DNA from: Candidatus Poribacteria bacterium
Lineage (GTDB): Bacteria > Poribacteria > WGA-4E > WGA-3G
Assembly (NCBI GenBank): GCA_965198235.1
Contig: OZ240248.1
Span: 800,001 to 864,000 of the forward strand
Direction: 5' to 3'
Length of the DNA stretch: 64,000 bases
Shown here: in pieces, positions 1 through 18,657 of the stretch
Layout of the letters: each line of letters opens with the position of its first letter
Numbering within the stretch: the first letter of the stretch is position 1
The notes under the pieces: generated by a model
What the model was told of the DNA's origin: nothing
Seen by the model: only the letters and a program-made list of their open reading frames with translations
The model's database searches: none
Position numbers and translations under genes: made by a program

Positions 1-361
1 AGGGTTTTTCCGCTTTCATCTTAAGAAATTCATAGAACTCGTAGAGCGTTTCCTTGTCTTTTTCCGTAAATTCCATCATCCCCTTGAACATAGCACTAAT
101 CTTTGGGTCGGCTAAGAGGTCATCATAGCTTTTGTCGGCTTTTCCAAGTAGGTAATCGGTAGTGACTTTTAAAGCATCGGAAAGACTTGAAAGTGTTTTA
201 AACGAGGGTTTTCGGGCTCCTGATTCAAATTGCGAGATCGCAGCAGGTGTTAGATTTGCCACCTTTGCAAGTTCTGTTTGTGTCAACTTCAATTCACGAC
301 GACGCAGTTTTATACGTGAGACGACTTTATCTGTATTTGAGTCTCTTGATTCTCTGCCCAC
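1..361 (-). CDS. XRE/Cro-CI family HTH transcriptional regulator (3' end runs off the window)
   Basis: Not in ORF track. Manual translation from GTG at 361 with GGAG upstream: MGRESRDSNTDKVVSRIKLRRRELKLTQTELAKVANLTPAAISQFESGARKPSFKTLSSLSDALKVTTDYLLG, a typical HTH_3 pattern. Confidence 0.9.
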   Translation of the reverse strand, partial: MGRESRDSNTDKVVSRIKLRRRELKLTQTELAKVANLTPAAISQFESGARKPSFKTLSSLSDALKVTTDYLLGKADKSYDDLLADPKISAMFKGMMEFTEKDKETLYEFYEFLKMKAEKP

Positions 362-541
362 GTTAAGCTCCTTATTATTAAACAGCGAACTATTGTTATA
401 ATACCGCTGAGTTTTCTTAAATTTCTTTAGCATCGCTGCAGCGTTGCAGTGAAATGTGGTTTTAAGGGAATTCTGCTTCAATGAGAGGCAAAAACGTGAA
501 ATATATTTTAACCTAAAAAAGCCTTAAATGCAAATTTTAAT

Positions 542-571
542 TTGACAAAAATTGCAATAATAATATACAAT
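542..571 (+). promoter_or_regulatory. Candidate sigma70 promoter for the giant-protein operon
   Basis: TTGACA (542-547), 18-nt spacer, TACAAT (566-571) in an AT-rich divergent intergenic region. Confidence 0.5.
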
Positions 572-886
572 ATACATATTACTTTCTAAAATTACGCCAG
601 TAGGCTCCGAAAACAGGAATCTATAGCGAAAAGCGACTACTTCATGATTTTCCGCGACACTTAAAAGAGACAGCATAAACGCGACCACCGAATCTAAAGA
701 ACAACGGAGCTAACACGAAAAAAATAGAAAAAGATATATGAACCGCATTCCACTTTGTAAGAGTGATCGGATGCTAGGGGTATAATTTCTTTGCGCGCTG
801 TTTTCCTGCGTATTCTCTCAGGGATACCCAAACGCGCTACAGAGGGAAAATCTGAAAAATCTGAAAAAGGCGGGAGACTTTACAAC

Positions 887-3800
887 ATGAAAATTCATAG
901 TAGGCACGAGTGCAGCTTACGACGCTTCAGTGCACTAATAAATGTATTAATGTTTTTCCTTTCCGTTTTGCTTGTCACTGGGCAACTGCCCGATACTGCA
1001 TACGCGCAAACAGTTTCCAGTACTGGCATGAAATCTGCAGCCATTCAGATTCGGGATGACCTCTCTATTGGCAACATTCGAAAGGACATTGCACGCCTCT
1101 CAAGCCTCGACAGTCGGGTAACGGGCTATCCACAAGCTGCGAGTGGCAGCAAATACATTTTTGACCGTTTCGTCGAAATAGGCTTGCAAAACGTGGAAAG
1201 TCGCGAGTTCTCCGTCACTGTGCCGATCGACCACGGCGATAGCATCATTGAAGTACTCTCCCCAGAAGCCAACCTACTACATGCCTTTAAACTCACCCCA
1301 CTCTGGCCCAATCTTGTGCGGACCTCCCTGTTAGCAGACGGAATTAAACACACTGTGTTAGCAGGGGAAACACTTAAAGACATCGCAGAAAGTTACCAAG
1401 TTGATGAGACGACTATCCTTGCAGACGACCGGAACAAATTTCTGGCGACCCCAGTTGTCGAAGGAACCACCGTATTTATTCCAACAGGAGGTTTGTCTGG
1501 TCCCCTCCTTTACGGCGATGATGGCGAACTCGCCGATTTCAACGGCACCAACATTGGCGGATTTTGGCACAAGCTCCAAGATGGGGATACGCTCACAACG
1601 CTCGCTCGACGCTATCGTATCACCGAAGCCAGCATCACCGATGATATACTTAATGAACACCTGCAAAAAGCGTCCGATGGCATCGACAATGATGAGGATG
1701 GCACTATTGATGAATATGGCGAAATCCCCCAGCTTTCTGAAATCTTAGGGTGGGGAACAGATGGTATTGACAACGATGCAGATGGCTGGACAGACGAAAT
1801 TCCGGGGGACGACACTGATGAAATTGATAACGACAACGATGGACAAGTCGATGAATCCGGCGAGTTTATCGCCGCGAGTGAATCACATATCTTTATCCCG
1901 AAAGGGGCGATAGTCCTTCTCGATTTTAACTCCAGTACTCGTTATATCAATGCGGCAATGCTCGGTGGCACTGCCGTTATCTTTATCCAACCCGAAACAA
2001 CCATCCGAGGTGAAGCAGAAAATAAGTTCGGTACCGTCCCTGCTAATATACCACGATTTTGGATCTCCAAAGAAGATGCTGCTGTCCTAACCAATTTGTT
2101 GGAAGAACAACAGGCTCAGGGGAATCAAGTTAATGTTCGTGTCAGAGGTAAGATGACTTGGGAACGCCGCGTCGGGCAAAATATACGTGGGTTTTTGGAG
2201 GGTGGAGACCCGACCTTACGTGATGAACTCATCATTCTCACAGCTTATTACGACTCCATGTCTGTCGTCCCCGCAATGGCACCCGGTGCTGATCCAACTT
2301 GCGGTATCGCGACCCTCATGGAACTCGCGCGCCTTTTTAGTCAACCCCAATATCGGCCCGGCTATTCTGTTCTGCTTGTTGCAGTTGATGGACACTTCCA
2401 AGGGCTTGCGGGTATGCGCGCCTTCATGGAAGGCATTGGACAAGATATTGTCGGTTCTGCCACCAATTCACCCGGTACACCAACGATGCACGGACTTCGC
2501 CGTGGACTCTCTACAGATGTCATCGAATTTGAAGAATTGGGCAGAAGGCTTCTGCTCTCCATTGACCGGAGCGTCCTCGTCGATCTCCCTGCTGACTTTT
2601 TCCACGGTATACACAACGTAAAGTCTGACTTAGACTCCCTCACAACCACACTGGATGGCTTGGCAAAAACACGGTCTGAGATTGAATCTCTTACAGAGCA
2701 ACAGCGGGACTTTTCAGAACGCCAGAAGAAGCAGACAGATAGGAATCGAAAACGTGAAAAGCAAGGCTTCACAGGTGAAGAGAAGAGTCGTTTGTTAGCA
2801 AATCTTGCCCGCTCGAAGAAAGAGGCTCTGCAAACGACACATTTCCTCCGAGATATTGTCAGCAGGTTAGCTGAGGTTCGTGCCGTTGCACTCAACACGA
2901 GCCGATCCGCGCAGCGCGAATTAATCGAAACGCTTGGACTACCGATTGCCCGTCTTGACACATGGGCGGTACAGAAACTCACTCACGCTATAGAGACCGG
3001 TAACACCGACGAATATGGTACGCACCCAAATGATTCCTACCTTATTCCGGTGCAACAAGGTTCAGACTGGCAAGCCCTAACACCGGAAGACCTTCCACAA
3101 GAACTCGTCCCTGATATTGAGATGCTTAACAAAACCCTCGCAAACTGGGAGATGAGCGACAAACGCAAATTTGCGCTGATATGGACTCCCGAGAAAATAC
3201 TCGACCGGCATCTTGATTTACACTCACTCAACAAAGCGAAAGAAGCACGCAGTGTTTTACGAAATGCCAACGACTCCCAAGAAGTCGCGATCCAGCGAGA
3301 GAACCAGTTACTTGAAAAGGTTCTGGCACAAATACCTGACAGCCAACCCGTTGAAGATGAGATTAAAGGCAGCATTCGGCAACTCAAGGAAACGCCGATG
3401 GGGAAACCAAGCGGGGATTCTCTGATTTATGGCGGTAAGTTTTTGTCGAAAGCCGGGATAGAACGCCTTAACACTATTGATACCCAACTTCGACAGCGAT
3501 TAAACGAATCTGAAGACACCGTTGATGCTGCTATATTGATAGCCGATCTTCTCAAAGACAAACAAAGTATCTTTGAAATTGCCCTCCGCAACGCCCGATT
3601 GGAACGAACGCGTATCCAGAATTTGATCGCAACAGCCGGAACGTTAGGTCGGGAATACTTGGATGAAGAACGTCTCATTTTGGAAAACTACCTATCAGAT
3701 GATGAAGTCGAACAGGCACTTTCGTTGCGCTCCCGCATCTCATCACACATTAACGAAAAAGAACTGTTAGGGATCGTCAAAAAACGTGCGGACACAGACA

Positions 3801-6800
3801 TCGTAGCACTTGAAAATCTCGTTGAACGGTTACCCACATTAGATACCGATTTGGATGAAGAGACTAAAGTGCTCCTACGCGATAATATGCTGACGCTCCG
3901 AAACGCACGCTTCCGTAACATCCAGAGTCGCATTGAAAAGATGTTGCGCATTGACACCGACGAATACAATCGAAAACTCGGACAGATCGAGGCGGCTATC
4001 GCACTTCAAGACCTATTCAACCGGTATTATACCTCCCTCTATATTAGTATTGACTTCTCCTCACAATCAAATCAGTTCGGGGTGTTCAACAAGGGATGGT
4101 TCTACGATCAGCAACCCGAATTTGTATTACGTCGCGAGTTCGCAAGCATCGGCAATAAGCTTGCCGCTTACGCCGAAGATGCTGATTTCGGTGTCCGTGT
4201 CCGGAAACTCTGGCAGTGGACAGATGACCAAATTCGACAAGCCGTTATGGCAAGCCAATGGACGGTTGCAAACGGGATCTCTGATAAAGCAGCTCTTGAA
4301 GGGAAGACACTTGAAACGTTACTGAGCGCGCACTTCGACAAACTCACCGGTCTCAGCGGGGTGAGCCGACTGATGAAAATGCAGTTTGAACAGTGGCGTA
4401 ATCAAGGTGAACCCTCCGAGGATATGCTCAAGGATATGGACTATATCCGCAAAGAGGTCGAGCGTTTCATCCGAAATGATGTCCGCACTGCGAAGAAAAA
4501 TCGAAAGAATAATATCCGTACACGTGAGCAGCTGGACGCAATGCTACAGCTTCGATACGAAGACCCAGACACCTTTTCCGACGAAGAAATTGAGGATATC
4601 AAAACTCTTATTTCAATCGCGGGACTTGGGGGTGAGTCAAATTTCGTTAACGCCATCTCCGCAAGTGGCGGAAAGACTTGGAAAACCTATATCCCCGGTA
4701 AAATTGCTTTTGACAGTGAGGTCGCAACGCTTGTCGGAAAAACCGGAATCGCTTTTGCAACTATCGAAGATGCACGTGTCTTAACGGACACACCCCTCGA
4801 TACGATTGAACGCGTTGACTTGCGCGAAGGCGGTAATCTTCATCAGCAAGCACAGACATTGGCATCGTTACTCATCCAAGCACTTCGGGACGAAGAAATG
4901 CCTACCGCCGCACGCGTCGGGAATTTCTACTGCAACCTCTTTGGGGATGTCGTTGAATTTGACGCACGCGAGTCCGCACTACCGAATAAACCGGTACCTT
5001 ATCCCATCTTGACTCTCCGCAGGAAAAACAAAACCATGATGGGTGTCCGTGGGGACCTGTTTGTGATGGGCGATAACAAGGGCAACTTTGAGGTTGCCGG
5101 GTTAGCTATGGAAGGTAGAGCCACACGACGTCTCAAGGGGAAACAAGAAGTCGAAGCATATATTCTCGATCAAGATTCTGGAGATATCATCTACGCACCT
5201 GATTTAGGGAATTACGGTGCCAAGCTGCTTCCTAATGAAATTCCCATCAATACTCGTAGACGGGGTTGTCGGGTCGTCACATTTCCGTGCGTATCTACAA
5301 CTATCTACGACTTGGTGGATCAGCGGTACCTACGGACCTTGCGGGAACTCGAAGTCTATGATGCACTCACCGATAGCGCGCCGGAGAAGTTCGGGATGTC
5401 CAAACCGTGGCAGCAGCAAGGTGTGTCCGCAGCCGAGCCCATCGCTCTCGTGTATAGTAAGCCTAACACCCGCATTAAAATTGGGATGGCATACGGACAG
5501 ATCGGTAAACGACTCCTACTCATCAAAGCAACTAAGAGTGGTATGAAGAACCCGACGCTTTATACTGGTGAGGGGTTTGTCGTCCGCGAAAACGGACAAA
5601 TTCGCCTCACTCCATACGTCGTTGTCCGGGATATGTGGTGGCTCGATGAGAACCGCTCACGACTTTATAAACGGTTTGGTATCTCCAGCGACCGGCTTGA
5701 TAAACTCCATCAATTTGCGAATGATTATCTCGCACGAGCAGAGATTGAATTACTCCAAAAGGACTATCAACAAGCACTCAAACTCGCGCGTGCCGCGTGG
5801 GGCTACGAATCACGTGCATATCCGGATGTCAAACAGACCGGTAATGATGTCGTTAACGGTGTAATGTTCTATCTCGCTTTACTGATGCCGTTCGCGTACT
5901 TTATGGAGCGGCTCATTTTCGGTTTCCCAAATATCCACAAGCAGATTTTGGGATCGTTCGGCATCTTTTTACTTGTATTCTTCTTCCTAAGCCAAGTTCA
6001 CCCCGCATTCCAGATCGCGACTACACCTGTGATTATTTTGATCTCGTTCGTAGTGCTTGCATTGACGGTTATCGTCATCAGTATCATTGTCCGAAAATTC
6101 GAGGAGCAACTCGAAAAGATCCGGCAAGAAGGAAGTAAGGTTTATAAAGCAGATGTCGGCAGATTGAGTGCAAGTGCCGCCGCATTTAGTTTAGGTATCT
6201 CCAACATGCGGAAACGGAAAGGACGGACGATCCTGACATGTTGTACGTTGGTAATCCTGACATTTACTGTTATCTCGTTCACTTCTGTGCGAACGTTTAT
6301 GCACCCGAATAGAACAAGCCTCCCGCAAGTGACACCGCGCTATACGGGACTTCTTATCCGCGACCAGTACTGGCGCCCGCTTGAGGAACCCGTGCTCACC
6401 TCCGTGCTAAATGACATGCAAAAGACGCAGATCACACTTACCGCCTTAGAACGACTTTTGGCACGTAAGAACGAACTCTTAACCAAGCAAAGGCAACAAT
6501 CGATTGACATCACAGAAGCACGCAGGGCTTTAGAAGAGGGTGGCTTCATTGAACAAGTAGAGGAAAACCCCGTCTTGATCGTCCGGAATGTCGTCGCACC
6601 GCGCGCATGGTATCAATCCTCAGGAACTGGCGACCAATCGTTTGTCCAACTCACACGTACCTCAAACGTAGCAGATCCATCGCCTCCGACCCACCAACTC
6701 ACGGGTGAAGCGTTGACTTTCGCCGCAAACATGCTCGTGGGTATGAACGAATCCGAACCCGGTGTCAGCGGTATCGACAGATACCTCCAATACGGAAAAT

Positions 6801-8215
6801 GGTTCAACCCTGTAGACGCCGACGAATGGCCAACAGAATGGCCCTACGCCATCGTGTTGCCTAAAGGGATGGCAGAGTTGCTTAAGATCACCGAAAGCGA
6901 TATGGGCAAAGCCACCGTTTCTGTTTACGGCGCCGACTTCACCGTCGTCGGTGTCCTCGGTATCGGTTTCAAGGACCTCACCGATAACGATGGTGAAGAA
7001 CTTACACCCGTCGATTATCAGTTGATGCAACAGCAGCGGAGCCGCGGTGCCACTGGCGATGAGACACTTGAAGGTGAATTACAGAAGTACCTCCATCTCA
7101 CACCAGACAGCGTCGCCATCCTGCCATACGAGGTGGTCATGAATCAAGGAGGCACGCTTCGAAGCGTTGCTGTTAACATGGAACCGAGAGAGGGTGACCC
7201 GAAACTATTAGGTGCAACAGATAAGTTGGACCTCATCATGGCACCGCTCATGAACCGTATTGCCCTTGACTTCTTTGTCGGGCGCGATAAAGATACATAC
7301 CTCTACAGTAGTATCGGAATGACGAGTTTTAGTGGTATGGGCAACTTGTTTGTACCGATCCTGATCGCGGCTCTTATCGTCCTTAACACCATGCTTGGAG
7401 CCGTTTATGAACGGGTACGTGAAATCGGTATTTACAGTTCTGTCGGGCTCGCGCCTGTGCATATCGCCTTCCTTTTCCTTGCGGAGGCATGCGTATACGC
7501 CATCGTTGGTGCGGTGTTAGGCTATCTCATGGGACAAGCGATAGCGACAACCCTCGTGAATTTCGGCTGGCTTGCTGGGCTGACGCTCAATTACTCGTCA
7601 ATGTCAACCGTTGTTGCGACGATTATTGTCATGGCTGTAGTGCTGCTGAGTACACTGTATCCAGCGATCAAAGCCTCACGGATGGCGGTCCCTGATATCG
7701 AACGTAAGTGGAAACTCCCGGAACCTGAAGGTGACGTATGGCATTTCAACCTGCCCTTCACCGTCCTTGAAGAAGAGGCACTCGGTCTGAACGTCTTTAT
7801 GCGGGATTATTTTGAGGCACATGCAGACGAATCCGCCAGTGATTTCTATACAGATCAGGTTGCTTTCAGCCGAGCGGAAATCGAAGATTCCTACCAGATC
7901 GGGATGATGGTATGGCTGGCACCTTACGACTTGGGCGTGAGTCAGTCTATTCAGTTTGTTACATCCCCAGTCGGTGGTGAAGAAGAGGATCTCTACAAAA
8001 TCACATTGGATGTGCACCGCGAGAGTGGTGAGATTGCCTCTTGGAAGCGGGTCAACCGGCGTTTCCTCAATCTGCTGCGGAAACAACTTCTGATTTGGCG
8101 GACATTCAGTGTCGATATCCGGGCAGAGTTCCATGAACGTGGCAGAACTGAGGGCACTGACACACCGACAGAAGAAGCAGGACAGATGGACCCAGTACCG
8201 ACACCCGCGGATTAA
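887..8215 (+). CDS. Giant membrane protein: signal/TM, M28-peptidase-like domain with PA, 2 LysM and DxxDND acidic inserts, long helical insertions, TM bundle, MacB/FtsX-type permease C-terminus
   Basis: Likely ATG 887 with GGGAG RBS. M28-like motifs SRVTGYP and TAYYDS...APGAD...GIATLMELA. LysM-like HTVLAGETLKDIAESYQV and HKLQDGDTLTTLARRYRI. FtsX motif LNTMLGAVYERVREIGIYSSVGLAP. Confidence 0.85.
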   Translation: MKIHSRHECSLRRFSALINVLMFFLSVLLVTGQLPDTAYAQTVSSTGMKSAAIQIRDDLSIGNIRKDIARLSSLDSRVTGYPQAASGSKYIFDRFVEIGLQNVESREFSVTVPIDHGDSIIEVLSPEANLLHAFKLTPLWPNLVRTSLLADGIKHTVLAGETLKDIAESYQVDETTILADDRNKFLATPVVEGTTVFIPTGGLSGPLLYGDDGELADFNGTNIGGFWHKLQDGDTLTTLARRYRITEASITDDILNEHLQKASDGIDNDEDGTIDEYGEIPQLSEILGWGTDGIDNDADGWTDEIPGDDTDEIDNDNDGQVDESGEFIAASESHIFIPKGAIVLLDFNSSTRYINAAMLGGTAVIFIQPETTIRGEAENKFGTVPANIPRFWISKEDAAVLTNLLEEQQAQGNQVNVRVRGKMTWERRVGQNIRGFLEGGDPTLRDELIILTAYYDSMSVVPAMAPGADPTCGIATLMELARLFSQPQYRPGYSVLLVAVDGHFQGLAGMRAFMEGIGQDIVGSATNSPGTPTMHGLRRGLSTDVIEFEELGRRLLLSIDRSVLVDLPADFFHGIHNVKSDLDSLTTTLDGLAKTRSEIESLTEQQRDFSERQKKQTDRNRKREKQGFTGEEKSRLLANLARSKKEALQTTHFLRDIVSRLAEVRAVALNTSRSAQRELIETLGLPIARLDTWAVQKLTHAIETGNTDEYGTHPNDSYLIPVQQGSDWQALTPEDLPQELVPDIEMLNKTLANWEMSDKRKFALIWTPEKILDRHLDLHSLNKAKEARSVLRNANDSQEVAIQRENQLLEKVLAQIPDSQPVEDEIKGSIRQLKETPMGKPSGDSLIYGGKFLSKAGIERLNTIDTQLRQRLNESEDTVDAAILIADLLKDKQSIFEIALRNARLERTRIQNLIATAGTLGREYLDEERLILENYLSDDEVEQALSLRSRISSHINEKELLGIVKKRADTDIVALENLVERLPTLDTDLDEETKVLLRDNMLTLRNARFRNIQSRIEKMLRIDTDEYNRKLGQIEAAIALQDLFNRYYTSLYISIDFSSQSNQFGVFNKGWFYDQQPEFVLRREFASIGNKLAAYAEDADFGVRVRKLWQWTDDQIRQAVMASQWTVANGISDKAALEGKTLETLLSAHFDKLTGLSGVSRLMKMQFEQWRNQGEPSEDMLKDMDYIRKEVERFIRNDVRTAKKNRKNNIRTREQLDAMLQLRYEDPDTFSDEEIEDIKTLISIAGLGGESNFVNAISASGGKTWKTYIPGKIAFDSEVATLVGKTGIAFATIEDARVLTDTPLDTIERVDLREGGNLHQQAQTLASLLIQALRDEEMPTAARVGNFYCNLFGDVVEFDARESALPNKPVPYPILTLRRKNKTMMGVRGDLFVMGDNKGNFEVAGLAMEGRATRRLKGKQEVEAYILDQDSGDIIYAPDLGNYGAKLLPNEIPINTRRRGCRVVTFPCVSTTIYDLVDQRYLRTLRELEVYDALTDSAPEKFGMSKPWQQQGVSAAEPIALVYSKPNTRIKIGMAYGQIGKRLLLIKATKSGMKNPTLYTGEGFVVRENGQIRLTPYVVVRDMWWLDENRSRLYKRFGISSDRLDKLHQFANDYLARAEIELLQKDYQQALKLARAAWGYESRAYPDVKQTGNDVVNGVMFYLALLMPFAYFMERLIFGFPNIHKQILGSFGIFLLVFFFLSQVHPAFQIATTPVIILISFVVLALTVIVISIIVRKFEEQLEKIRQEGSKVYKADVGRLSASAAAFSLGISNMRKRKGRTILTCCTLVILTFTVISFTSVRTFMHPNRTSLPQVTPRYTGLLIRDQYWRPLEEPVLTSVLNDMQKTQITLTALERLLARKNELLTKQRQQSIDITEARRALEEGGFIEQVEENPVLIVRNVVAPRAWYQSSGTGDQSFVQLTRTSNVADPSPPTHQLTGEALTFAANMLVGMNESEPGVSGIDRYLQYGKWFNPVDADEWPTEWPYAIVLPKGMAELLKITESDMGKATVSVYGADFTVVGVLGIGFKDLTDNDGEELTPVDYQLMQQQRSRGATGDETLEGELQKYLHLTPDSVAILPYEVVMNQGGTLRSVAVNMEPREGDPKLLGATDKLDLIMAPLMNRIALDFFVGRDKDTYLYSSIGMTSFSGMGNLFVPILIAALIVLNTMLGAVYERVREIGIYSSVGLAPVHIAFLFLAEACVYAIVGAVLGYLMGQAIATTLVNFGWLAGLTLNYSSMSTVVATIIVMAVVLLSTLYPAIKASRMAVPDIERKWKLPEPEGDVWHFNLPFTVLEEEALGLNVFMRDYFEAHADESASDFYTDQVAFSRAEIEDSYQIGMMVWLAPYDLGVSQSIQFVTSPVGGEEEDLYKITLDVHRESGEIASWKRVNRRFLNLLRKQLLIWRTFSVDIRAEFHERGRTEGTDTPTEEAGQMDPVPTPAD

Positions 8216-8217
8216 GA

Positions 8218-8349
8218 TTTTCTAATTATTAAAATCTGGTCATCGTTCCACTACGTTTCACGATGGTTTTCGGTTAATTCTAACCGCAACTTCACCAGAC
8301 ATCTGCCCGAAACGAAGTGGAGGGCAGCTCAGAGGCACATAGTTAAAAA
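8218..8349. repeat. Intergenic TIR/twin-hairpin element (family A), copy 1
   Basis: Ends TTTTCTAATTAT...ATAGTTAAAAA. Hairpins catcgt-tccactacgtttc-acgatg and ctgccc-gaaacgaagtgga-gggcag. Confidence 0.8.
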
Positions 8350-8538
8350 ATGGAAAAAGTAGCAAGCCTTATTATCATCATCGGCACCTTCTTATGGCTG
8401 TTCAGCGTTTTCGCCCTCGAAGGGCGTTGGCAATGGCAGATGTTCTCAGCCCTCGTGCTGGCGGTTGGTATTTTCTGGGCGCATTTCTGGGAAGAACTAC
8501 GAAACACCGATAACACCGAAGAATCAGACGAAGAGTGA
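8350..8538 (+). CDS. Small 62-aa protein with two hydrophobic helices and an acidic tail
   Basis: In operon orientation; two TM-like stretches followed by EELRNTDNTEESDEE. Confidence 0.6.
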   Translation: MEKVASLIIIIGTFLWLFSVFALEGRWQWQMFSALVLAVGIFWAHFWEELRNTDNTEESDEE

Positions 8539-8694
8539 CGGACGAACAGAAGACCTGTAGGGTTGGAAGGTCTTTAGGAGTGCCACACGGGCAGTCCTCA
8601 TAGACTGATACAGAGCGAGACCGGAAAATGCCGACCAACCCCCCTTCCCAGTAACGGGTGGGGACCCCTGTCAAAAGAAAGGAGAACATTCAAT

Positions 8695-10683
8695 TTGGCG
8701 AGAGAAAGAGTATCACAAGCAGATGAATGGCAAGCTTGGGCACAGCGATACGACATTGAAGGCGGTATTCGTACCTTTGAGTCGGGGCTAACAGTTAAGG
8801 TGTTTGTTGGAGCACTTTTCGTTGGCTTACTGATGATGCCAGGTTCCATCTATCTCAGTTATGTATCGGGTGAATCCGGTGCTGGTGCAGCACCTTGGGT
8901 TGCCGTTATTCTATTCACCGAACTCGCGCGGCGTTCCTTTACAACTGCCCGACGACAGGAGCTTTATATGCTCCTCGGGTTAACAGGCGCAGCTGTTGGA
9001 AGTGGGCTCCAGTACCGGAACTTTATCTGGTACGCCTACTTTATCAATACCCCGCAGGCAGCTTCTTATGAAATCGCAGACAAAATCCCAGATTGGATCG
9101 TACCTGCAGGTGATTCTGTCGGCGTACTCACGCGAAGTCTGATACATCCGGACTGGTTTCTGCCTATCGGTATCTACCTCGTAGGAAAACTGCTGGGGAC
9201 ACTGCGATTTGTCAGTGGACAGTATATTCTGTTTCGGCTTACGGCAGACCTTGAACGACTCCCATATCCGATGGCACCGATTAGTGCCCAAGGGGCAACC
9301 GCACTCGCAGAAACGACAGGTAAAGAAGAGACCTGGCGATGGCGCGTTTTCTCCATCGGTTCTATGGCAGGACTTATCTGGGGGTTCCTCTATATCGGTG
9401 TGCCTTCGCTCACCGGTGTTATGATGAGCCAGCCGATTCAGATCCTGAAGATCCCGTGGATAGATTTCACACAGAGTATTGAAGGTTTCGCACCAACAGG
9501 TGTTTTCGCCTTCCGAACCGATTTTGGACAGATGCTCATTGGGTTCGTGATGCCGTTCCCGATTATCATGACAGAGTTTATCACGGCGATGGCATCGCAA
9601 TTTATTTTGAATCCACAAATTCTGTACCGCTACGAGATTCTTCATCAGTGGACCCCGGGTTTAGATGTCCGTGGTGTCGGCTTGTTCAACGGACTGGATT
9701 TCTGGATTAGTTACGGTATGGGGAAATCCTTTAGCCTTGCGCTCGTTGGAATGGCAGCTTCAATCCCGATGCTCGTTAAACTACGGAAATCCCAGAAAAC
9801 CGCAGGCGAACGCGGTTCCTTCGCGACCCCTCCGAACCGTGGCGATTTCCCAATCTGGTTGATGGGATTAATGTGGTTCATCGGTATGGCTGGATTCATA
9901 TGGCTCATCCATTGGATGGTTCCTAACTTCCCCTTGAGTTTCCTGATAGGCTACGCATTTCTGTACACGCCAATTAATTCGTATATTACCGCACGAACCT
10001 TTGGGGTCTTGGGGCGCGATCTCTTTGAAATACCGTATCTACACGAAATTACCTTTATTTTGAGCCGATACGAAGAGGTAGACATTTGGTTCGCACCACT
10101 CCCAGACGAAGATTATGGACGTGGCACCCAGAATTGGCGAGTCCTTGAATTGACAGGGACGACCTTCACTTCAAATCTCGCTGGCACACTGCTGATTATG
10201 CCGATTTTGCTTGTCAGTGGAATTGTGGTGCTTCACTTTATCTGGAAGATTGCCCCTATTCCGAGTGCACAGTATCCGTTTGCACAGATGATGTGGCCCA
10301 TTAACGCCACAAATGAATGTCTCTGGAAAACGTCGCTTCGGGATGGAAACAGCCAAATGCTTCAAGCGATTCGGGGTGATTACGTCGCCGCCGGATTTAC
10401 GTCAAGCCTCGCAATCTACGGGATGTTGTGGGTATTTAAACTACCCTCAATGTGGTACTACGGAATTATCGGTGGTATCGGCGCAGATCCGGGGGGCATG
10501 GTTGCACGGCTACTTGGTGCGATCATTGGACGGTTCTACATGATTAAGCGATTCGGGATGCGGCGTTGGTATATGTTCAACCCGGTCCTTGCAGCAGGAT
10601 TTGCCTGCGGGGTTGGCCTCATCGGCATGGGAACTGTAGCAATTGCCCTTGTTTCTAAAGCCGTAATCGTCAAACCGTTTTAA
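8695..10683 (+). CDS. Polytopic membrane protein, OPT (oligopeptide transporter) superfamily-like
   Basis: TTG start with AAGGAG RBS; many hydrophobic segments; motifs RQELYML, D-LERLPYPMAPI and APIPSAQYP. Confidence 0.75.
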   Translation: MARERVSQADEWQAWAQRYDIEGGIRTFESGLTVKVFVGALFVGLLMMPGSIYLSYVSGESGAGAAPWVAVILFTELARRSFTTARRQELYMLLGLTGAAVGSGLQYRNFIWYAYFINTPQAASYEIADKIPDWIVPAGDSVGVLTRSLIHPDWFLPIGIYLVGKLLGTLRFVSGQYILFRLTADLERLPYPMAPISAQGATALAETTGKEETWRWRVFSIGSMAGLIWGFLYIGVPSLTGVMMSQPIQILKIPWIDFTQSIEGFAPTGVFAFRTDFGQMLIGFVMPFPIIMTEFITAMASQFILNPQILYRYEILHQWTPGLDVRGVGLFNGLDFWISYGMGKSFSLALVGMAASIPMLVKLRKSQKTAGERGSFATPPNRGDFPIWLMGLMWFIGMAGFIWLIHWMVPNFPLSFLIGYAFLYTPINSYITARTFGVLGRDLFEIPYLHEITFILSRYEEVDIWFAPLPDEDYGRGTQNWRVLELTGTTFTSNLAGTLLIMPILLVSGIVVLHFIWKIAPIPSAQYPFAQMMWPINATNECLWKTSLRDGNSQMLQAIRGDYVAAGFTSSLAIYGMLWVFKLPSMWYYGIIGGIGADPGGMVARLLGAIIGRFYMIKRFGMRRWYMFNPVLAAGFACGVGLIGMGTVAIALVSKAVIVKPF

Positions 10684-10685
10684 TC

Positions 10686-10921
10686 TTTTTAACTATGGGC
10701 CCCTGGTCACTGATCCATTACATTCCGCAGTGGTGTCTGGTTGATTCCGACGTGATTCGGAAGATGTACGGTTTTAAGGAAATCGCGAACTGGAACTCGC
10801 TCCTACAAACGTACATATCTTTAATTGCGTTGGGATTAATCAGAAACCATTGTGGAACATTGTCCTGCAAGCCTCTATAGGCTTGCACAAGGAACAATGC
10901 CCAGGAGTAATAAATTAAAAA
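10686..10921. repeat. Family A element, copy 2
   Basis: TTTTTAACTAT...ATAAATTAAAAA. Hairpins cactg/cagtg and cattgt/acaatg, the latter with an extra hairpin in its loop. Confidence 0.75.
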
Positions 10922-11956
10922 ATGGACTGGACTGTTTTTGGTTGGGCAGGCATAGAACTGGAAATACCCACGACATGGGAACTTAGTGGACTCAGCGGAG
11001 ATCAGAAAACAGGATATCTCCGGCTTGACGATGCAGAGATGCCTCGCCTTGAACTCAAATGGGCGCACACCCGACGCAAAAAGCCAGACCTTCATGCGAC
11101 GCTCGACGAATACTTCAAGTTGATTCGCAAGACTTATAAGAAAGGCACCGAACTCTCCTTCCGCCGGAACGTTAATTTCATCAAAGAAGATGAATTCTTT
11201 AAGGGACGCACCGTTCTCGGTTTTAGTTGGAAGGGGAGTATTCGCGCGAATGGGTTGATTTTCCACACCGGGAAACGGATTACGATCGTGCAGGTGATGG
11301 GACGGCTCAAGGAGAATTGGCGCCCCACGGTTCTTCGGGTTTTCGAATCAATTACAGACCGTGGAGACGCACCATTGACACTGTGGAGTGCTTACGGGCT
11401 TAAGTTAGGTGTTCCAAAAGAATACAAGTTGGAACGTCAGAAATTGCTCAGTGGGTACCTGTTGTTTACCTTCGTTGCAAAGCCTGTCCGCTTTCAAAGC
11501 GCAGTACGGCTTGCGAAACTGGCAAGCAACCGTCTACGGAACAATGGTTTTGTAGAAGATTTAGATACTTCTCCACCCGACAAAGGCCGGCTTAGCGTGG
11601 AACGGTACGGACCAGCAGAGGTGATGTTGAGCGACTATAAAGACGCTCCAAACCCATTAGAGGCATGGTTTCGCGCCAAATACACAAAAGCGATTCGTGG
11701 CTACGGGTTTGAAGTAACATCCGACATAGACTCAGAAGATGAACGTCTGACACTCATTGGACAACAGACACGGCTTTATGATGGGGTCCCACTTACACCG
11801 GTGTTGATGCTTGATAAACTTTCTAAACGTACAACACTTGTGTTTCATCTATGGCGATGCAATCATTCCAATCGTATCTATGTCATCCAGTCCATCGGCA
11901 GTACCGATGCGCGTTCGACCGTCCAAAAGGTTGCTGAAAGTATTGAATGCCACTAA
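10922..11956 (+). CDS. Hypothetical soluble protein with a two-fold internal repeat (possibly PsbP/DcrB-like fold)
   Basis: 344 aa in operon; WAGIELEIPTTWEL...GYLRL recurs as AYGLKLGVPKEYKL...GYLLF. Confidence 0.7.
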   Translation: MDWTVFGWAGIELEIPTTWELSGLSGDQKTGYLRLDDAEMPRLELKWAHTRRKKPDLHATLDEYFKLIRKTYKKGTELSFRRNVNFIKEDEFFKGRTVLGFSWKGSIRANGLIFHTGKRITIVQVMGRLKENWRPTVLRVFESITDRGDAPLTLWSAYGLKLGVPKEYKLERQKLLSGYLLFTFVAKPVRFQSAVRLAKLASNRLRNNGFVEDLDTSPPDKGRLSVERYGPAEVMLSDYKDAPNPLEAWFRAKYTKAIRGYGFEVTSDIDSEDERLTLIGQQTRLYDGVPLTPVLMLDKLSKRTTLVFHLWRCNHSNRIYVIQSIGSTDARSTVQKVAESIECH

Positions 11957-11964
11957 TAGTTATA

Positions 11965-12030
11965 AGTTCTCAGTTGTCAGTAAGAAAAACGTCTCTCTCT
12001 AATAACCGAATACTGAAAACCAACAACCGT
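11965..12030. repeat. Heptamer-rich imperfect palindrome (family B)
   Basis: gttctcagttgtcagtaag...aaccgaatactgaaaaccaacaacc. Confidence 0.5.
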
Positions 12031-12065
12031 ACATAAAAGATTGTTCATTCCAGACCCATTAAAAG

Positions 12066-12539
12066 ATGTTGAACAGAATTCTATATGCTCTCAAACTCAA
12101 GAAACGTCCGGATATGGACCGGACTCGGGTGATGAAGTCGTTCCCTGTTCGGAACCAGTTGATAACCTGGGAAATAGACGACAAAGGCGAAGCCTCACTC
12201 GTTGTTCCACAGAAAGACAAACTCTGGATCCGACTCGCCAGTAAGCTTTTTATGCTCCCGAATAAAAGGGTTATTGTATTAGATTCCATCGGAACTTATG
12301 TGTGGCAGATGTGCGACGGTAAGCATACCATTTCGCAGATCATAAAGGGGGTCCAAAAACAGTACCAGTTGACTCGGAAAGAAGCGGAAACGTCCCTCTT
12401 TACGTTTATGCAGCAGCTTGGCAAACGGAATTTTATAGGGTTCGCCATTCCTAACCCTCAACAGAACGCTCCTGTAACGCCCGAACCTGAACCTGAACCT
12501 GAAAAATCGGGACTCTTTGGGTTCCTGCAGAGGCGGTAA
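12066..12539 (+). CDS. Stand-alone PqqD family / RiPP recognition element (RRE) protein
   Basis: LDSIGTYVWQMCDGKHTISQII...YQLTRKEAETSLFTFMQQLGKRNFI is the PqqD winged-helix pattern. Confidence 0.85.
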   Translation: MLNRILYALKLKKRPDMDRTRVMKSFPVRNQLITWEIDDKGEASLVVPQKDKLWIRLASKLFMLPNKRVIVLDSIGTYVWQMCDGKHTISQIIKGVQKQYQLTRKEAETSLFTFMQQLGKRNFIGFAIPNPQQNAPVTPEPEPEPEKSGLFGFLQRR

Positions 12540-12581
12540 GCCGTATCCTCATCGGAAACTTAGGTAAAATAGGAGAAAAAA

Positions 12582-13394
12582 ATGAATATACCAACAGAAA
12601 TTGGCGATGTTAGTGCAATTCTCGCCGAAACACCAGGAAAGTTCCAACGCGTCCTTCCAAAGGAAAATACAGTTCGCGTCCGGAACCTTATCAAGCGATA
12701 TGAGATGGGAACGCAGACCGTGGATGCCCTCCGCGGTGTCAATTTCCAAATCCAACGCGGCGAATACATTTCTATTATGGGTCCCTCCGGTTCAGGGAAA
12801 TCGACACTTTTCAATATGATTGGTGGTTTAGACAAACCGACCGAGGGGAGAGTTTACATTGACGAGGTGGACATCGCACAACTTGACGCGTACGAACTCG
12901 CGTGGCTCCGCTGCCGAAAAATCGGCTATATCTTTCAATCGTTCAACCTCATCCCTGTTATGACTGCACTCGAAAACGTCTCACTTCCGATGATTTTCGC
13001 CGGTATGAGTGCAGACGAAAGTAGAGAGAAAGGCGTTGACCTCCTTACACTCGTCGGATTGGGTGACCGCGTGCAACACAAGCCGTTAGAACTCTCCGGT
13101 GGACAGCAACAGCGTGTCGCAATTGCACGTTCGCTCGCAAACGACCCTGCAATCGTCCTCGCTGATGAACCGACAGGAAACTTGGACACTAAAACTGGAC
13201 TCGAAATCATCGCCCTACTCCGTCGACTCAATGCTGAAAACGGCGTAACCATCATCACCGCAACGCACGACCACAAAATGTTAGATGTCTCCGACCGTAT
13301 CTTCCACATGGCAGACGGTAAGGTGGACAAGATCGAGGGGCGCGATGAGATCGACCTCCACGTCGGTAAATTAGACGGTGAAGAAGTCGGATAA
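12582..13394 (+). CDS. ABC transporter ATP-binding protein, LolD/MacB type
   Basis: Walker A GPSGSGKST, IGYIFQSFNL, LSGGQQQRVAIAR, ADEPTGNLD, ATHD. Confidence 0.95.
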   Translation: MNIPTEIGDVSAILAETPGKFQRVLPKENTVRVRNLIKRYEMGTQTVDALRGVNFQIQRGEYISIMGPSGSGKSTLFNMIGGLDKPTEGRVYIDEVDIAQLDAYELAWLRCRKIGYIFQSFNLIPVMTALENVSLPMIFAGMSADESREKGVDLLTLVGLGDRVQHKPLELSGGQQQRVAIARSLANDPAIVLADEPTGNLDTKTGLEIIALLRRLNAENGVTIITATHDHKMLDVSDRIFHMADGKVDKIEGRDEIDLHVGKLDGEEVG

Positions 13395-13395
13395 A

Positions 13396-13523
13396 CAGTT
13401 GTCAGGTATCAGTCGTCAGCTAAGAGGTTTTCGGTATTCATAAATGATATGGGTGAATCCACACAACTCTGAATTGATAACTGATAGATAACCAATACGC
13501 CGATAGCCAACAGCCAATTAACC
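13396..13523. repeat. Heptamer-rich imperfect palindrome (family B)
   Basis: cagttgtcaggtatcagtcgtcagctaagagg...ctctgaattgataactgatag...gccgatagccaacagccaa. Confidence 0.6.
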
Positions 13524-13529
13524 ATCAAA

Positions 13530-14651
13530 ATGACTATCTACAAACGCTTAGGCATTCCTACAGTCATCAACGGGAACGCAACGCTCACACGGCTCGGTGG
13601 TTCGATTATGCCACCTGAGGTTGTCGCGGCGATGGCAGACGCTGCCAAGCACTTTGTAGACATCATCGAACTCCAAAAACGGGTCGGGGAAGAGATTGCG
13701 AAACTCACCCACAACGAAGCGGCGTACGTCTCCTGTGGTGCCGCCGCCGCCTTGACACTCAGCACTGCCGCGTGTATCACTGGGCTTGATGCTGACAAGC
13801 GTGAAAAATTGCCTCACCTTGATGCGTCAATGAAAAGTGAAGTCATTGTGCATCGTCATGGCCGTGTCGGATACGATTTCGCCGTTCGGCAGGTCGGTGT
13901 CACATTTGTAGAGATAGGGGACGAAAACGGAACGACGCCCGACGAGTTAGAAAACGCTATTACCGAGAAAACCGCCGCAATCTTCTACTTCGCAAATTTT
14001 CTTCGCCAACACCTCTGGGTGTCTTATGAAGAAGCCATCGCGATTGCCGAAAGGCACAACGTCCCTCTCATCGTTGATGCCGCTGCACAGTTACCACCCC
14101 CAGAAAATCTTTGGCGTTTCACGCAGATGGGTGCTGATTTAGCACTCTTTAGTGGGGGAAAAGGTTTGTCCGGACCGCAGAGTAGTGGGTTAATCGTCGG
14201 AAAAAAATCGTTGATTGAAACTATCGCCTTCAACGGACCACCGCACCCTTTCATCGGCAGGGGAATGAAGGTCGGAAAAGAGGAAATGGTAGGTTTACTT
14301 GCCGCTGTCAAATGGTACTTGGATCAGGATCACGACGAATTACAGAAATCTTACGAGGATCAGGTTACCTACTACGACGAAGTGTTCGCGGACATCCAAG
14401 GCGTTACAGTACACCGTAGCTTCCCCTCCGAAGCCGGACAACCGATGCCGCGCACCGAAATCCGATTTGATGAGGAACAACTCGGCATCACACGGAACGA
14501 AATCCTTCAGCAACTCACAGAAGGTGAACCCTCCATTGACATTGCAGGCGCAGGTGCAAACGGCGTAGTTATCAACGGACAAACGCTAATGCCCGGAGAG
14601 GTAGAAATCATCGCTCAAAGATTAAAGGAGATTTTAAGTAGCGTAGCATGA
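13530..14651 (+). CDS. PLP-dependent enzyme, SelA-like/DgaE family
   Basis: VINGNATLTRLGGS, VDAAAQ, FSGGKGLSGPQSSG, IGRGMKVGKEE. Confidence 0.85.
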   Translation: MTIYKRLGIPTVINGNATLTRLGGSIMPPEVVAAMADAAKHFVDIIELQKRVGEEIAKLTHNEAAYVSCGAAAALTLSTAACITGLDADKREKLPHLDASMKSEVIVHRHGRVGYDFAVRQVGVTFVEIGDENGTTPDELENAITEKTAAIFYFANFLRQHLWVSYEEAIAIAERHNVPLIVDAAAQLPPPENLWRFTQMGADLALFSGGKGLSGPQSSGLIVGKKSLIETIAFNGPPHPFIGRGMKVGKEEMVGLLAAVKWYLDQDHDELQKSYEDQVTYYDEVFADIQGVTVHRSFPSEAGQPMPRTEIRFDEEQLGITRNEILQQLTEGEPSIDIAGAGANGVVINGQTLMPGEVEIIAQRLKEILSSVA

Positions 14652-15358
14652 AACTTAACAACGGTATTCGCCTGACATGGCTCGGACATTCCACCTTTAA
14701 AATCGAAACAGACGGACAAACCCTCCTCATTGACCCATGGGTGACAAACAATCCGGTATGTCCGGATGCCCTTAAAACCTTTGACGCGCTCGACGTGATA
14801 CTCATAACACACGGGCACGCCGATCACATCAGCGACGCGGTACCACTGGCGAAAAAACATACACCGACAGTTGTGTCTATCGTTGAAATCGCAGGATGGC
14901 TTGGTAAACAGGGTGTCGAGAACACGATTGGTATGAATAAGGGTGGCACTGTCACTGTCGGCGACCTGAAAGCAACGATGGTCTCAGCAAACCATAGTAG
15001 CAGCTTCACAGAGGAAAACGGCACGACAGTTTATTTGGGTGAACCCGCAGGCTACGTGATTGAATTCGGAAACGGCTACAAAATTTACCACGCTGGGGAT
15101 ACGAACGTGTTCGGGGACATGCGAATTATCGGTGAGATTTACCAACCCGACCTCGCGTTACTCCCTATCGGCGACCATTTCACGATGGGACCGCGTGAAG
15201 CCGCCTATGCCGCGCAATTACTCAACGTCCCAGCGATTCTGCCCATCCATTATGGCACTTTCCCACTATTGACAGGAACGCCCAAAGAACTCCGTAAATT
15301 GACGGCATCTCAGGATGTGGAAATTATTTCATTAGAAGTTGGGGAAATCTTAGATTGA
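14648..15358 (+). CDS. Metallo-beta-lactamase-fold hydrolase (UPF0173-like)
   Basis: WLGHS, IDPW, THGHADH, YHAGDT, PIHYGTF. Confidence 0.9.
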   Translation: MKLNNGIRLTWLGHSTFKIETDGQTLLIDPWVTNNPVCPDALKTFDALDVILITHGHADHISDAVPLAKKHTPTVVSIVEIAGWLGKQGVENTIGMNKGGTVTVGDLKATMVSANHSSSFTEENGTTVYLGEPAGYVIEFGNGYKIYHAGDTNVFGDMRIIGEIYQPDLALLPIGDHFTMGPREAAYAAQLLNVPAILPIHYGTFPLLTGTPKELRKLTASQDVEIISLEVGEILD

Positions 15359-15426
15359 GGCAATTTTTTGTAGCAAAAACTGTTAGTTTGTGCCCTACAA
15401 GGTAGCATATCGAGGAAAGACAGTTT

Positions 15427-18592: not shown

Positions 18593-18657
18593 GGGGCAAC
18601 TCCGAAAATTCAGGATATAAACAGGATACCATATTTTGTAGTATACCGAAAATTTAC

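Follow-up and report, generated by a model that had tools for sequence, protein, structure and literature searches.

The DNA analysed here comes from a Candidatus Poribacteria bacterium (assembly GCA_965198235.1, contig OZ240248.1, positions 800,001 to 864,000 of the forward strand); the whole stretch of 64,000 nt is referred to as the window (Table 1). A preliminary description had announced six co-oriented genes, and all six (g1 to g6) are indeed found as plus-strand open reading frames. Its domain calls were likewise recovered: LysM, PA, M28-like and FtsX in the giant subunit g1; OPT in g3; tandem PsbP-like in g4; PqqD/RRE in g5; and a LolD/MacB-type ATPase in g6. The frame of g1 opens upstream of its ATG, at a TTG at position 791. 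The promoter match in front of g1 is a candidate only, because such sites are no more numerous in the region as a whole than in shuffled sequences.

Table 1. Features of the locus, in window coordinates.
Feature	Position	Strand	Remarks
Divergent XRE/HTH_3 regulator ORF	2-481	-	Pfam HTH_3 57.6 bits
Sigma-70-like promoter match 5' of g1	542-571	+	TTGACA, 18-nt spacer, TACAAT; 11 of 12 positions; candidate
g1, giant subunit, 2442 aa from ATG	887-8215	+	
g1, first LysM motif, aa 153-199	1343-1483	+	Pfam LysM 29 bits (whole protein); best stretch 155-179
g1, PA-like domain and N-half of M28-like domain, aa 331-520	1877-2446	+	Pfam M28 at 432-515; weak PA
g1, Poribacteria-specific insertion, ca. aa 521-1150 (ca. 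630 aa)	2447-4336	+	Charged residues and Leu abundant
g1, C-half of M28-like domain (aa 1151-1340) and conserved domain (aa 1341-1590)	4337-5656	+	
g1, three extra transmembrane helices joining outer head to ABC permease, aa 1655-1735	5849-6091	+	Hydropathy peaks
g1, MacB/FtsX-type permease module, aa 1781-2267	6227-7687	+	TM1, extracytoplasmic domain, TM2-4
g1, cytoplasmic C-terminal domain, aa 2268-2405	7688-8101	+	43-51% identity across phyla
g2, small membrane protein, 62 aa	8350-8538	+	
g3, OPT-fold permease (from model), 662 aa	8695-10683	+	TTG start
g4, tandem PsbP/Mog1-like protein (from model), cytoplasmic, 344 aa	10922-11956	+	No TM segment
g5, stand-alone PqqD/RRE protein, 157 aa	12066-12539	+	
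g6, MacB/LolD-type ABC ATPase, 270 aa	12582-13394	+	

The outer section of g1 presents a signal-peptide-like N-terminus; a region of LysM and acidic repeats; a PA/M28-like head split by an insertion; and a beta-rich domain. The membrane section follows with a three-TM bundle; a MacB-type TM1; a periplasmic domain; the FtsX helices TM2-4; and a cytoplasmic C-terminal domain. Three Pfam matches of g1 exceed their cut-offs (in parentheses): FtsX with 47.7 bits (25.5), M28 with 31.1 bits (21.3), and LysM with 29 bits (20.9). The M28 match covers only profile positions 1-78 of 193, and the PA score of 17.3 bits is below the cut-off. The first LysM motif is followed, up to about residue 325, by a second LysM-like stretch and three acidic repeats of the DxDxDG type, matched weakly in NCBIfam; only 127 to 134 of the 290 residues of this region align with three relatives from other phyla. 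The large insertion is missing in a 1529-aa homologue from Armatimonadota, only 83 to 225 of its 630 residues align, and it is probably helical.

The best PDB sequence match of the g1 head is the pseudo-peptidase Nicalin (E = 1.5e-4), and a bacterial leucyl aminopeptidase matches as well. Opposite H97, D117, E151 and E152 of the latter chain g1 carries Y, P, H and F, and the two ligands of the C-half are unalignable. By their positions, counted in the alignment, these four residues are zinc ligands and the catalytic Glu in the enzyme from Aeromonas/Vibrio. With four catalytic or metal positions lost, the M28-like head is, as far as can be read from the alignment, catalytically dead; having neither metal nor catalytic residues, it could therefore bind, not cut. 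The ‘cell-wall-anchored’ peptidase-like domain of the preliminary description thus needs revision on both counts, since the four positions are gone and the LysM part and the insertion are Poribacteria additions rather than core. Nicastrin and the transferrin receptor are further pseudo-peptidases of the PA/M28 fold. The g1 head shares with Nicalin an M28-type sequence and a lost active site, but it comes from a bacterium and forms one protein with an ABC permease; the likeness spans only some 60 to 75 residues, and common descent is not evidenced beyond the M28 family.

Residues 1151-1590 of g1 gave no match in Pfam; they are collinear with g1 of an Armatimonadota operon (L069), at 33 to 43% identity across phyla. 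The three extra helices (51 to 58%) exceed every outer domain, and TM1 and TM2-4 reach 60 to 64%. The FtsX match lies at 2156-2266, and residues 2127-2267 find LolC, MacB, YtrF and LolF among PDB sequences. Between TM1 (1781-1804) and TM2 (from 2155) there is a loop of 345 aa, in which MacB_PCD (1928-2029) reaches 18.5 bits (cut-off 27). The C-terminal domain belongs to no known family, gave no useful match in a protein atlas search, and has no similarity to g4.

The small protein g2 had been described as having two TM segments: segment 4-22 passes the hydropathy threshold, and the second hydrophobic stretch is weaker and stays below it. By tblastn, g2 is restricted to one Poribacteria class (44 of 49 Poribacteria loci; none of 30 others). 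Its neighbor g3, like g4, found no match in Pfam (E<=0.01 for g3) or NCBIfam. The model of g3 (pLDDT 76.7), in contrast, has as best Foldseek match barley Yellow Stripe 1 (HvYS1; 7wst_A, E 1.9e-10), closely followed by 7wsr_A (E 1.4e-9), both with TM 0.58 to 0.65 and 14 to 15% sequence identity in the structural alignment; the next match drops to E 2.3e-3 and TM 0.12. The model thus points to the transmembrane fold of the OPT/YSL transporters (PF03169, TC 2.A.67). By sequence, g3 is absent among the PF03169 matches of its own genome, a precomputed PF03169 match occurs in 6 of 120 g3 relatives among the matches listed, and a profile of 16 family members retrieved nothing from PDB sequences at E<=1. 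The g3 family is present in 171 of the 176 genomes of the phylum. In five genomes g3 is 84, 80, 77, 65 and 59% identical, against 64, 67, 60, 50 and 49% for alanyl-tRNA synthetase (AlaRS), and it therefore evolves more slowly than this enzyme.

The cytoplasmic proteins g4 and g5 come next. The g4 model (pLDDT 86.1) has 16 Foldseek matches in the PDB at E<=0.001, with PsbP chains first (TMt 0.5 to 0.66, about half of the model) and the two-domain T6SS immunity proteins Tli4/TplEi also present, which suggests a PsbP-type fold in two copies. Its family comprises 982 representative clusters at E<=1e-10. The g5 protein is the sole PqqD of the genome (PF05402, 45 bits; cut-off 23.4). The profile of its relatives matches solved RRE proteins, namely PqqD (3g2b_A, E 2.3e-7) and the lasso-peptide chaperones 9x90_B and TbiB1 (5v1u_A), in agreement with the RRE assignment made earlier. 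At another locus (L085) PqqD is fused to a small FtsX in a protein of 378 aa. A predicted g4-g5 complex scored 0.51 (best control 0.00); its runs shared no fewer than 71% of contacts, partner pLDDT was 66 or higher, and the result hints that g4 may bind g5. With the RRE placed on the small FtsX by the fusion, and beside g4, a role as adaptor or receiver fits as well as the delivery of a substrate to a membrane channel that the preliminary description proposed.

The ATPase g6 matches ABC_tran (Pfam, 120.8 bits) and shares 66 to 74% identity with the ATPases encoded in the operons of other phyla. Its top NCBIfam matches are LolD, DarD, DevA, YbbA, MacB and FtsE, all below the equivalog cut-offs, the best being LolD (236.4 bits; cut-off 307.75). 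A small FtsX of 225 aa (P0127) is encoded 1.69 Mb from the cassette, followed by a second ATPase that is a paralogue of g6 (63% identity). P0127 matches the FtsX part of the L085 fusion at E 1.8e-33, against 7.8e-10 for the next-best FtsX paralogue in the genome, and occurs in as many genomes of the phylum as g3 (171/176). Outside Poribacteria, 9 of the 30 loci carry within the operon a small FtsX 38 to 45% identical to P0127, and these are exactly the nine with an ATPase. The cassette at our locus is therefore incomplete: the small FtsX and the second ATPase belong to the system.

The set of genes stays together across the 49 Poribacteria loci and well beyond, as a search of gene neighborhoods confirmed. 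At 45 of the 49 Poribacteria loci and at 21 of the 30 loci from other phyla (24 of which offered 2.5 kb or more of upstream sequence), a co-directional giant precedes g3 by no more than 3.5 kb, and across phyla no other feature of the system is as well conserved as this g1-g3 adjacency. Five Armatimonadota loci continue with g4, g5 and the ATPase in that order. Such recurrence of the gene order across phyla is more than chance. The XRE regulator and two downstream genes accompany the cassette at 18, 26 and 26 of the 49 Poribacteria loci and at none of the 30 others (tblastn), which is only local synteny and not core. The six-gene system of the preliminary description must accordingly be redrawn, with the regulator and g2 outside the core and two further components 1.69 Mb away. 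Exceptions to the adjacency exist: a g3-family gene has no giant next to it at 3 of the 24 non-Poribacteria loci with sufficient upstream sequence, and in one genome (G177), within 19 kb of retrieved sequence, tblastn detects a g3-family gene for only one of three giants. Overall, the system is near-universal in Poribacteria and extends widely through Armatimonadota, WS1-type and related uncultured phyla.

No characterized system of this composition turned up in a literature search, as had been surmised. The nearest relatives are the type VII ABC systems (MacB, LolCDE, FtsEX, YtrEF/LolF-type), which do mechanical work within the envelope: they release lipoproteins, drive efflux or activate hydrolases. 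With these g1 shares the four-helix FtsX permease, and its large extracytoplasmic domain between TM1 and TM2 may be of their MacB_PCD type; g6 shares the LolD/MacB/FtsE-type ATPase, and the use of two different permease subunits (g1 and the small FtsX) recalls LolC/LolE. Unlike in these systems, three extra helices connect the g1 permease to ca. 1,600 aa of outer sequence that include a dead PA/M28 head; the small FtsX has nearly no outer domain; the constant partner is an OPT-fold permease; and cytoplasmic RRE and PsbP-like adaptors are added. Scores against the LolC/E, LolD, MacB and FtsX equivalogs are far below the cut-offs. An identity with LolCDE was considered and rejected: g1 scores 18.2 bits against lolCE (cut-off 362.45), g6 misses the LolD cut-off given above, and a separate, better LolC/E-like frame (242.9 bits) exists elsewhere in the genome. 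OPT proteins are regarded as secondary importers that work on their own, taking up oligopeptides or metal chelates together with protons, and we know of none that is genetically locked to an ABC motor as g3 is.

We consider it highly probable that these genes form one machine in which a type VII ABC transporter and an OPT-fold protein act together. Its motor would be an asymmetric MacB/LolCDE-like complex with g1 and the small FtsX as permeases and g6 and its paralogue as ATPases; the outer PA/M28 head would be tied to the permease by the three extra helices, and g5 would sit in the cytoplasm on the small FtsX, paired with the tandem PsbP-like g4. Outside the cell the g1 head may capture a peptide-like oligomer; the FtsX periplasmic domain, moved by ATP, would pass it to the OPT-fold channel for uptake; and at the inner face the RRE/PsbP pair would receive or sense the oligomer and couple to the ATPases. 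This statement as a whole (an asymmetric machine with an OPT-fold channel that takes up peptide-like oligomers) is the leading candidate, though somewhat less likely than not, and uptake as the direction of work is more tentative still. The paralogous giants, of which five out of five genomes of Gemmatimonadota/Latescibacterota type hold three to four each, point to substrate-specific transport rather than to a single housekeeping job. Against an importer count the very slow evolution and the near-universal single copy in Poribacteria, which one would sooner expect of an essential machine for biogenesis. To our knowledge, moreover, none of the known type VII ABC systems (MacB, LolCDE, FtsEX) is an importer, and the known RREs serve peptide maturation, not transport. 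A bolder version, in which a hybrid primary/secondary transporter would grip free peptide ends with its dead-aminopeptidase head and feed long peptide-like oligomers to the OPT channel, with strand addition to motor-bound RRE/PsbP-like proteins acting as an inner ratchet, seems improbable.

Export or extraction is the first alternative, though an unlikely one: the RRE/PsbP-like pair would recognize a cytoplasmic peptide or protein encoded elsewhere, and the LolCDE-like motor would pull the product from the membrane onto the dead-peptidase head, passing it through or alongside the OPT-fold protein. Every type VII ABC system characterized so far acts either outward or inside the envelope; RREs bind the leader peptides of cytoplasmic precursors, and g5 is a clear RRE by sequence; the PsbP/DUF1795-like folds, to which the g4 model belongs, include chaperones of hydrophobic segments; and the strong conservation would suit a role in biogenesis. 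However, the cassette has no conserved precursor gene, g2 being confined to Poribacteria; the characterized members of the OPT family, whose fold the g3 model shares with HvYS1, import; and several paralogous giants per genome suggest varied external ligands. Slightly less likely again is mechanotransmission of the FtsEX type without any transport, in which the head would regulate remodeling of the wall or envelope and g3 would be a separate transporter sharing the operon. FtsEX with EnvC, PcsB and RipC offers a precedent for an ABC motor that drives an inactive or regulatory outer domain, and the apparently dead head and the LysM motifs of the Poribacteria version are consistent with it; yet the LysM region is a lineage addition, poorly aligned to other phyla, and the frequent g1-g3 adjacency would be puzzling were g3 unrelated.

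A RiPP- or PQQ-type cluster, in which PqqD would offer a precursor to modifying enzymes and the finished product would leave the cell by way of the ABC parts, is suggested by the sequence family that g5 shares with PqqD and the lasso-peptide B1 chaperones (such as TbiB1) and by the 62-aa frame of g2, and is close to refuted: the radical SAM, YcaO, lasso cyclase and pqq genes that had been called missing are absent among the ORFs scanned in window positions 1-21618, and modifying enzymes were not found in the Armatimonadota operon either; g2 is hydrophobic and lineage-specific; g5 remains far below all RiPP-specific NCBIfam cut-offs (e.g., 37 bits against 100); it stands between g4 and the ABC parts, or fused to FtsX in one lineage, rather than beside RiPP enzymes and a precursor; and natural-product clusters do not show the near-universal presence that the system has in the phylum.

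A permanent genetic pairing of ABC and OPT proteins would add a new architecture to both families, with a dead peptidase outside for ligand binding and an RRE inside as adaptor, and the RRE fold would gain a role outside peptide natural products. Should the hybrid transporter prove true, it would represent a new import route for oligomers that are too long for the classical Opp/Dpp systems. Poribacteria are dominant symbionts of sponges. Since the system is widespread and its OPT-fold permease is conserved more strongly than a tRNA synthetase, it is likely central to the feeding or the envelope building of these uncultivated bacteria. The Poribacteria operon, devoid of two of its parts, is a warning for annotation and for reconstitution. 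Contigs from four metatranscriptome libraries of a single study, RNA libraries that may contain some DNA, cover the whole locus.

All six co-oriented genes (g1 to g6) claimed in the preliminary description were confirmed as ORFs, coordinate for coordinate (see the table below). In genome coordinates the window is G000:C1:800001-864000. They are separated by gaps of 42 to 238 nt, within which a terminator scan found no terminator-like site on the + strand; across the scanned region the counts of promoters and terminators do not exceed those of shuffled sequence, and window 1-16000 holds no Rfam family or riboswitch match at E≤0.1. Metatranscriptome contigs from four libraries of one study span the locus and both flanks. 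Of the 30 bins into which window 1-16000 was divided, two runs cover all and the remaining two cover 27 and 29; contigs also cross the g4/g5 junction as well as the junction of g6 with the next gene. Since these contigs all derive from a single study, may include DNA carry-over, and mostly end within strain-variable spacers, we discounted co-transcription as one transcript: the coverage denotes presence in RNA libraries, not operon structure. The contigs end in unlike "loose ends" at window 8233-8303, 8639-8675, 10845-10916, and 11962, and their coding parts match at 95-100%; the intergenic spacers vary among co-occurring strains.

Features of the cassette and its upstream flank (positions in the window)
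Feature	Position	Strand	Basis
HTH_3/XRE gene, divergent from the cassette	end at 481	-	Pfam HTH_3 match
Sigma-70-like match (TTGACA, 18-nt spacer, TACAAT)	542-571		promoter scan; candidate
g1, giant M28-like/FtsX protein	887-8215	+	ORF, 2442 aa
g2, membrane protein	8350-8538	+	ORF, 62 aa
g3, predicted OPT-fold permease	8695-10683	+	ORF, 662 aa
g4, PsbP-like protein	10922-11956	+	ORF, 344 aa
g5, PqqD/RRE protein	12066-12539	+	ORF, 157 aa
g6, ABC ATPase	12582-13394	+	ORF, 270 aa

A pattern scan with one genome per GTDB species yielded 583 confirmed relatives, of which the best 79 loci were kept: 49 of Poribacteria type and 30 from other groups (Armatimonadota, Abditibacteriaceae, WS1/Zipacnadia, Brocadiia, Planctomycetota, Gemmatimonadota, Latescibacterota, and unnamed bacteria). 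By tblastn, a g1-type gene lies at most 3.5 kb upstream of g3 on the same strand in 45 of the 49 Poribacteria loci and in 21 of the 30 others (24 of which offer at least 2.5 kb of upstream sequence). The corresponding counts are 44 and 0 for g2, 48 and 9 for g4, 48 and 5 for g5, and 46 and 9 for a close ATPase. Hence the giant, the OPT-like, the PqqD, and the ATPase genes, expected to recur as neighbours, do keep their adjacency in Poribacteria and in other phyla. The XRE gene and the two genes downstream of the cassette (encoding a SelA-like PLP enzyme and a metallo-beta-lactamase-fold protein) are retained among close relatives only in tblastn searches of the 79 loci, and lie outside the system. 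The system is real and conserved, and its kind is type VII ABC, in a variant so far undescribed: a full-text literature search, whose reach stops short of subscription journals and supplements, returned no publication on such a system, which agrees with the earlier statement that no characterized system of this composition was known. The cassette tolerates insertions: extra DNA of 1.3-4 kb lies between the end of g1 and g3 in the Poribacteria loci L027, L031, L033, L034, L041, L043-L048, L050, and L060, and 1.4-5 kb lies between g5 and g6 in L025, L034, L036, and L037.

The g3 protein is difficult to place by sequence: it matches no Pfam or NCBIfam family, and a profile built from 16 sequences retrieved no PDB entry at E≤1. 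Its AlphaFold model (pLDDT 76.7) best matches the fold of barley Yellow Stripe 1 (E 1.9e-10, TM 0.58-0.65; next-best match, TM 0.12), so the predicted fold bears out the OPT-like call where the sequence routes gave none; g3 has the OPT fold, yet without recognizable membership of PF03169. It was detected in 171 of the phylum's 176 genomes, and in 131 of the 133 that are of high quality. In all five genome pairs compared, its identity exceeds that of alanyl-tRNA synthetase (84/64, 80/67, 77/60, 65/50, and 59/49%); this is indicative only, as the synthetase is the sole reference gene and the five genomes are related. The Poribacteria genus g15 carries g3 as a tandem pair (two matches in each genome) in 19 of 20 genomes, for example at G044:C1:4229989-4231983 and 4232074-4234065, and these copies share 77% and 80% identity with g3 of the window. 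Two long frames elsewhere in the genome of the window (657 and 696 aa; G000:C1:4631188-4631931 (+) and G000:C1:1516582-1517217 (+)) give PF03169 matches below cut-off (21.5 and 19.2 bits), have no FtsX frame nearby, and may be distant OPT-fold paralogues.

The giant, g1, begins with a hydrophobic segment (14-32) and an Ala-x-Ala-type site, probably a signal peptide. Hydropathy then indicates an extended outer region, followed by three helices (1655-1735), a cytoplasmic linker of 45 residues, the MacB-type TM1 (1781-1804), an outer loop of 345 residues, three FtsX helices (2155-2257), and a C-terminal domain of some 140 residues in the cytoplasm; this predicted topology is self-consistent with the N-in/C-in topology of MacB. 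Pfam finds FtsX, M28 (N-terminal half only), and LysM above cut-off, and PA and MacB_PCD below it, while PDB sequence matches are to LolC, MacB, YtrF, and LolF for the permease and to Nicalin and a bacterial leucyl aminopeptidase for the head, i.e. the outer PA/M28-like part. In the alignment, positions 97, 117, 151, and 152 of the aminopeptidase chain (H, D, E, E), which in that enzyme serve as zinc ligands and general base, are matched by Y, P, H, and F of g1, and the head is therefore a pseudo-peptidase. Compared with three relatives from other phyla, the membrane core and linker are 51-64% identical, the C-terminal cytoplasmic domain 43-51%, and the outer domains 33-49%. Judged against a 1529-aa Armatimonadota homologue, two parts are Poribacteria additions: the region of LysM and acidic repeats, and some 630 residues inserted within the M28-like domain. 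Of the proposed cell-wall-anchored peptidase-like protein, the LysM stands, albeit as a lineage-specific addition, and the head lacks four catalytic or metal residues. An hhalign comparison of the C-terminal domain, a candidate third PsbP-like repeat, with the g4 profile gave a probability of 0.65%, and in the protein atlas the domain falls in unnamed clusters only (0.90-0.91, low recognition).

The calls for g4, g5, and g6 held up. Without a TM segment by hydropathy, g4 is modelled (pLDDT 86.1) as tandem PsbP/Mog1-like domains, in support of the PsbP-like repeats proposed for it; in a library of 1.84 billion proteins its family comprises 1776 representative clusters at E≤1e-3, 982 at 1e-10, and 294 at 1e-30. 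The g4 homologue of one Poribacteria-type MAG (L046:12795-13844) is interrupted by a stop codon within the frame that aligns and was excluded from alignment A2. The sole PqqD of the genome, g5, is a PqqD/RRE protein by Pfam, and its profile also matches solved PqqD and lasso-peptide chaperones, in keeping with the RRE assignment. Finally, g6 is of the LolD/MacB/FtsE type as described, though under every equivalog cut-off. A predicted g4-g5 complex scored 0.51 (runs 0.49-0.52) versus 0.00 in all three controls, with at least 71% of contacts shared among runs and a partner pLDDT of at least 66, which the tool grades as "weak support"; in its calibration, 58 of the 80 solved complexes reached the pass mark, as did 2 of the 110 mismatched pairs, and at scores of 0.60 or less stand only 7 of the 80 solved complexes and both passing mismatches. 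The two genes abut or overlap in Armatimonadota, which provides a reasonable prior, and there is modest support that g4 and g5 would pair up.

The genes of the six-gene system are real, but in Poribacteria the cassette is incomplete, a small FtsX and a second ATPase being encoded elsewhere. At the Armatimonadota locus L069 a small FtsX gene sits between the PqqD and ATPase genes, and at another homologous locus, L085, one 378-aa protein combines a PqqD domain with the small FtsX. Searched against the genome of the window, the PqqD part of this fusion finds g5 and the FtsX part finds P0127, a frame of 225 aa on the - strand (G000:C1:2495898-2496572; 44% identity, E 1.8e-33; next FtsX paralogue, 7.8e-10), some 1.69 Mb from the cassette. 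P0127 comprises four hydrophobic segments with hardly any outer loop, and the ABC ATPase that follows it is 63% identical to g6 and 64% to the L069 ATPase. It is single-copy in 171 of the 176 genomes of the phylum; the five that lack it differ from the five without g3, as expected from incomplete assemblies. Of the 30 non-Poribacteria loci, 9 carry a P0127 homologue (38-45% identity) within the operon, either between PqqD and ATPase (five Armatimonadota loci) or just upstream of the ATPase preceding g1 (four WS1-type loci). From this gene arrangement the motor is most likely a heterodimer of the giant and the minimal FtsX; LolC/LolE is likewise a heterodimeric permease, but the pair proposed here would be far more lopsided. 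In Poribacteria such a motor would use two paralogous ATPases.

We consider it likely that these proteins assemble as one machine, in which an asymmetric type VII ABC motor would move a ligand-binding, non-catalytic head beside an OPT-fold channel, the RRE/PsbP-like pair sitting at the cytoplasmic face of the small FtsX. Uptake of peptide-like oligomers is favoured because characterized OPT proteins are importers, because a non-catalytic aminopeptidase fold is a natural binder of free peptide ends, and because paralogue expansions suggest varied ligands. The last point rests on five Gemmatimonadota/Latescibacterota-type genomes in which the closest g3 homologue has no adjacent giant and which each carry three to four giants (1524-1738 aa) away from it. 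Against uptake, we know of no type VII ABC system that imports, RREs are to our knowledge confined to peptide maturation, and the extreme conservation looks like that of a biogenesis machine. The full reading, one machine for the uptake of peptide-like oligomers, is accordingly offered tentatively, and the uptake direction taken on its own we hold slightly more doubtful still. That g3 might work alone, as its stand-alone genes could indicate, is weakened by the three to four giants elsewhere in those genomes. In one of these genomes, a g3-family gene lies about 1.2 kb downstream of one of the three giants, and tblastn over the 19 kb fetched detects none for the remaining two. Beside one giant of Gemmatimonadota type (L103), a divergently encoded 691-aa protein is unlike the g3 profile in sequence (hhalign probability 0.28%). 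The system as a substitute for a missing lipid II flippase or Lol permease was dropped, as the genome, with about 20 other FtsX frames, has its own MurJ (359 bits) and LolC/E-like (242.9 bits) frames and hence no obvious housekeeping gap. A RiPP or PQQ pathway was rejected on the weighing of rivals and on a test of cluster membership, in which neither the ORFs scanned in window 1-21618 nor the Armatimonadota operon L069 yielded a modifying enzyme.

A second contig of the same assembly (G000:C2, about 43.9 kb) repeats G000:C1:~775-819 kb, a stretch that takes in window 1-19000, with g3, the FtsX part of g1, and g5 at 100% identity and matches at a constant offset; it is probably an assembly duplicate, not a true second copy, and may contribute to the 5.3% contamination figure. 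At window 26752-27988 (-) two overlapping frames (311 aa, MacB_PCD, 147.7 bits; 121 aa, FtsX, 72 bits) together make up an ordinary MacB-type permease, which suggests a frameshift and hence a pseudogene or an assembly error. Directly downstream of the cassette, window 15427-21618 (-) encodes a 986-aa Eco57I-type N6 DNA methylase (51.6 bits) followed by ORFs of 224 and 819 aa without Pfam match, which together may form a restriction or defence island.
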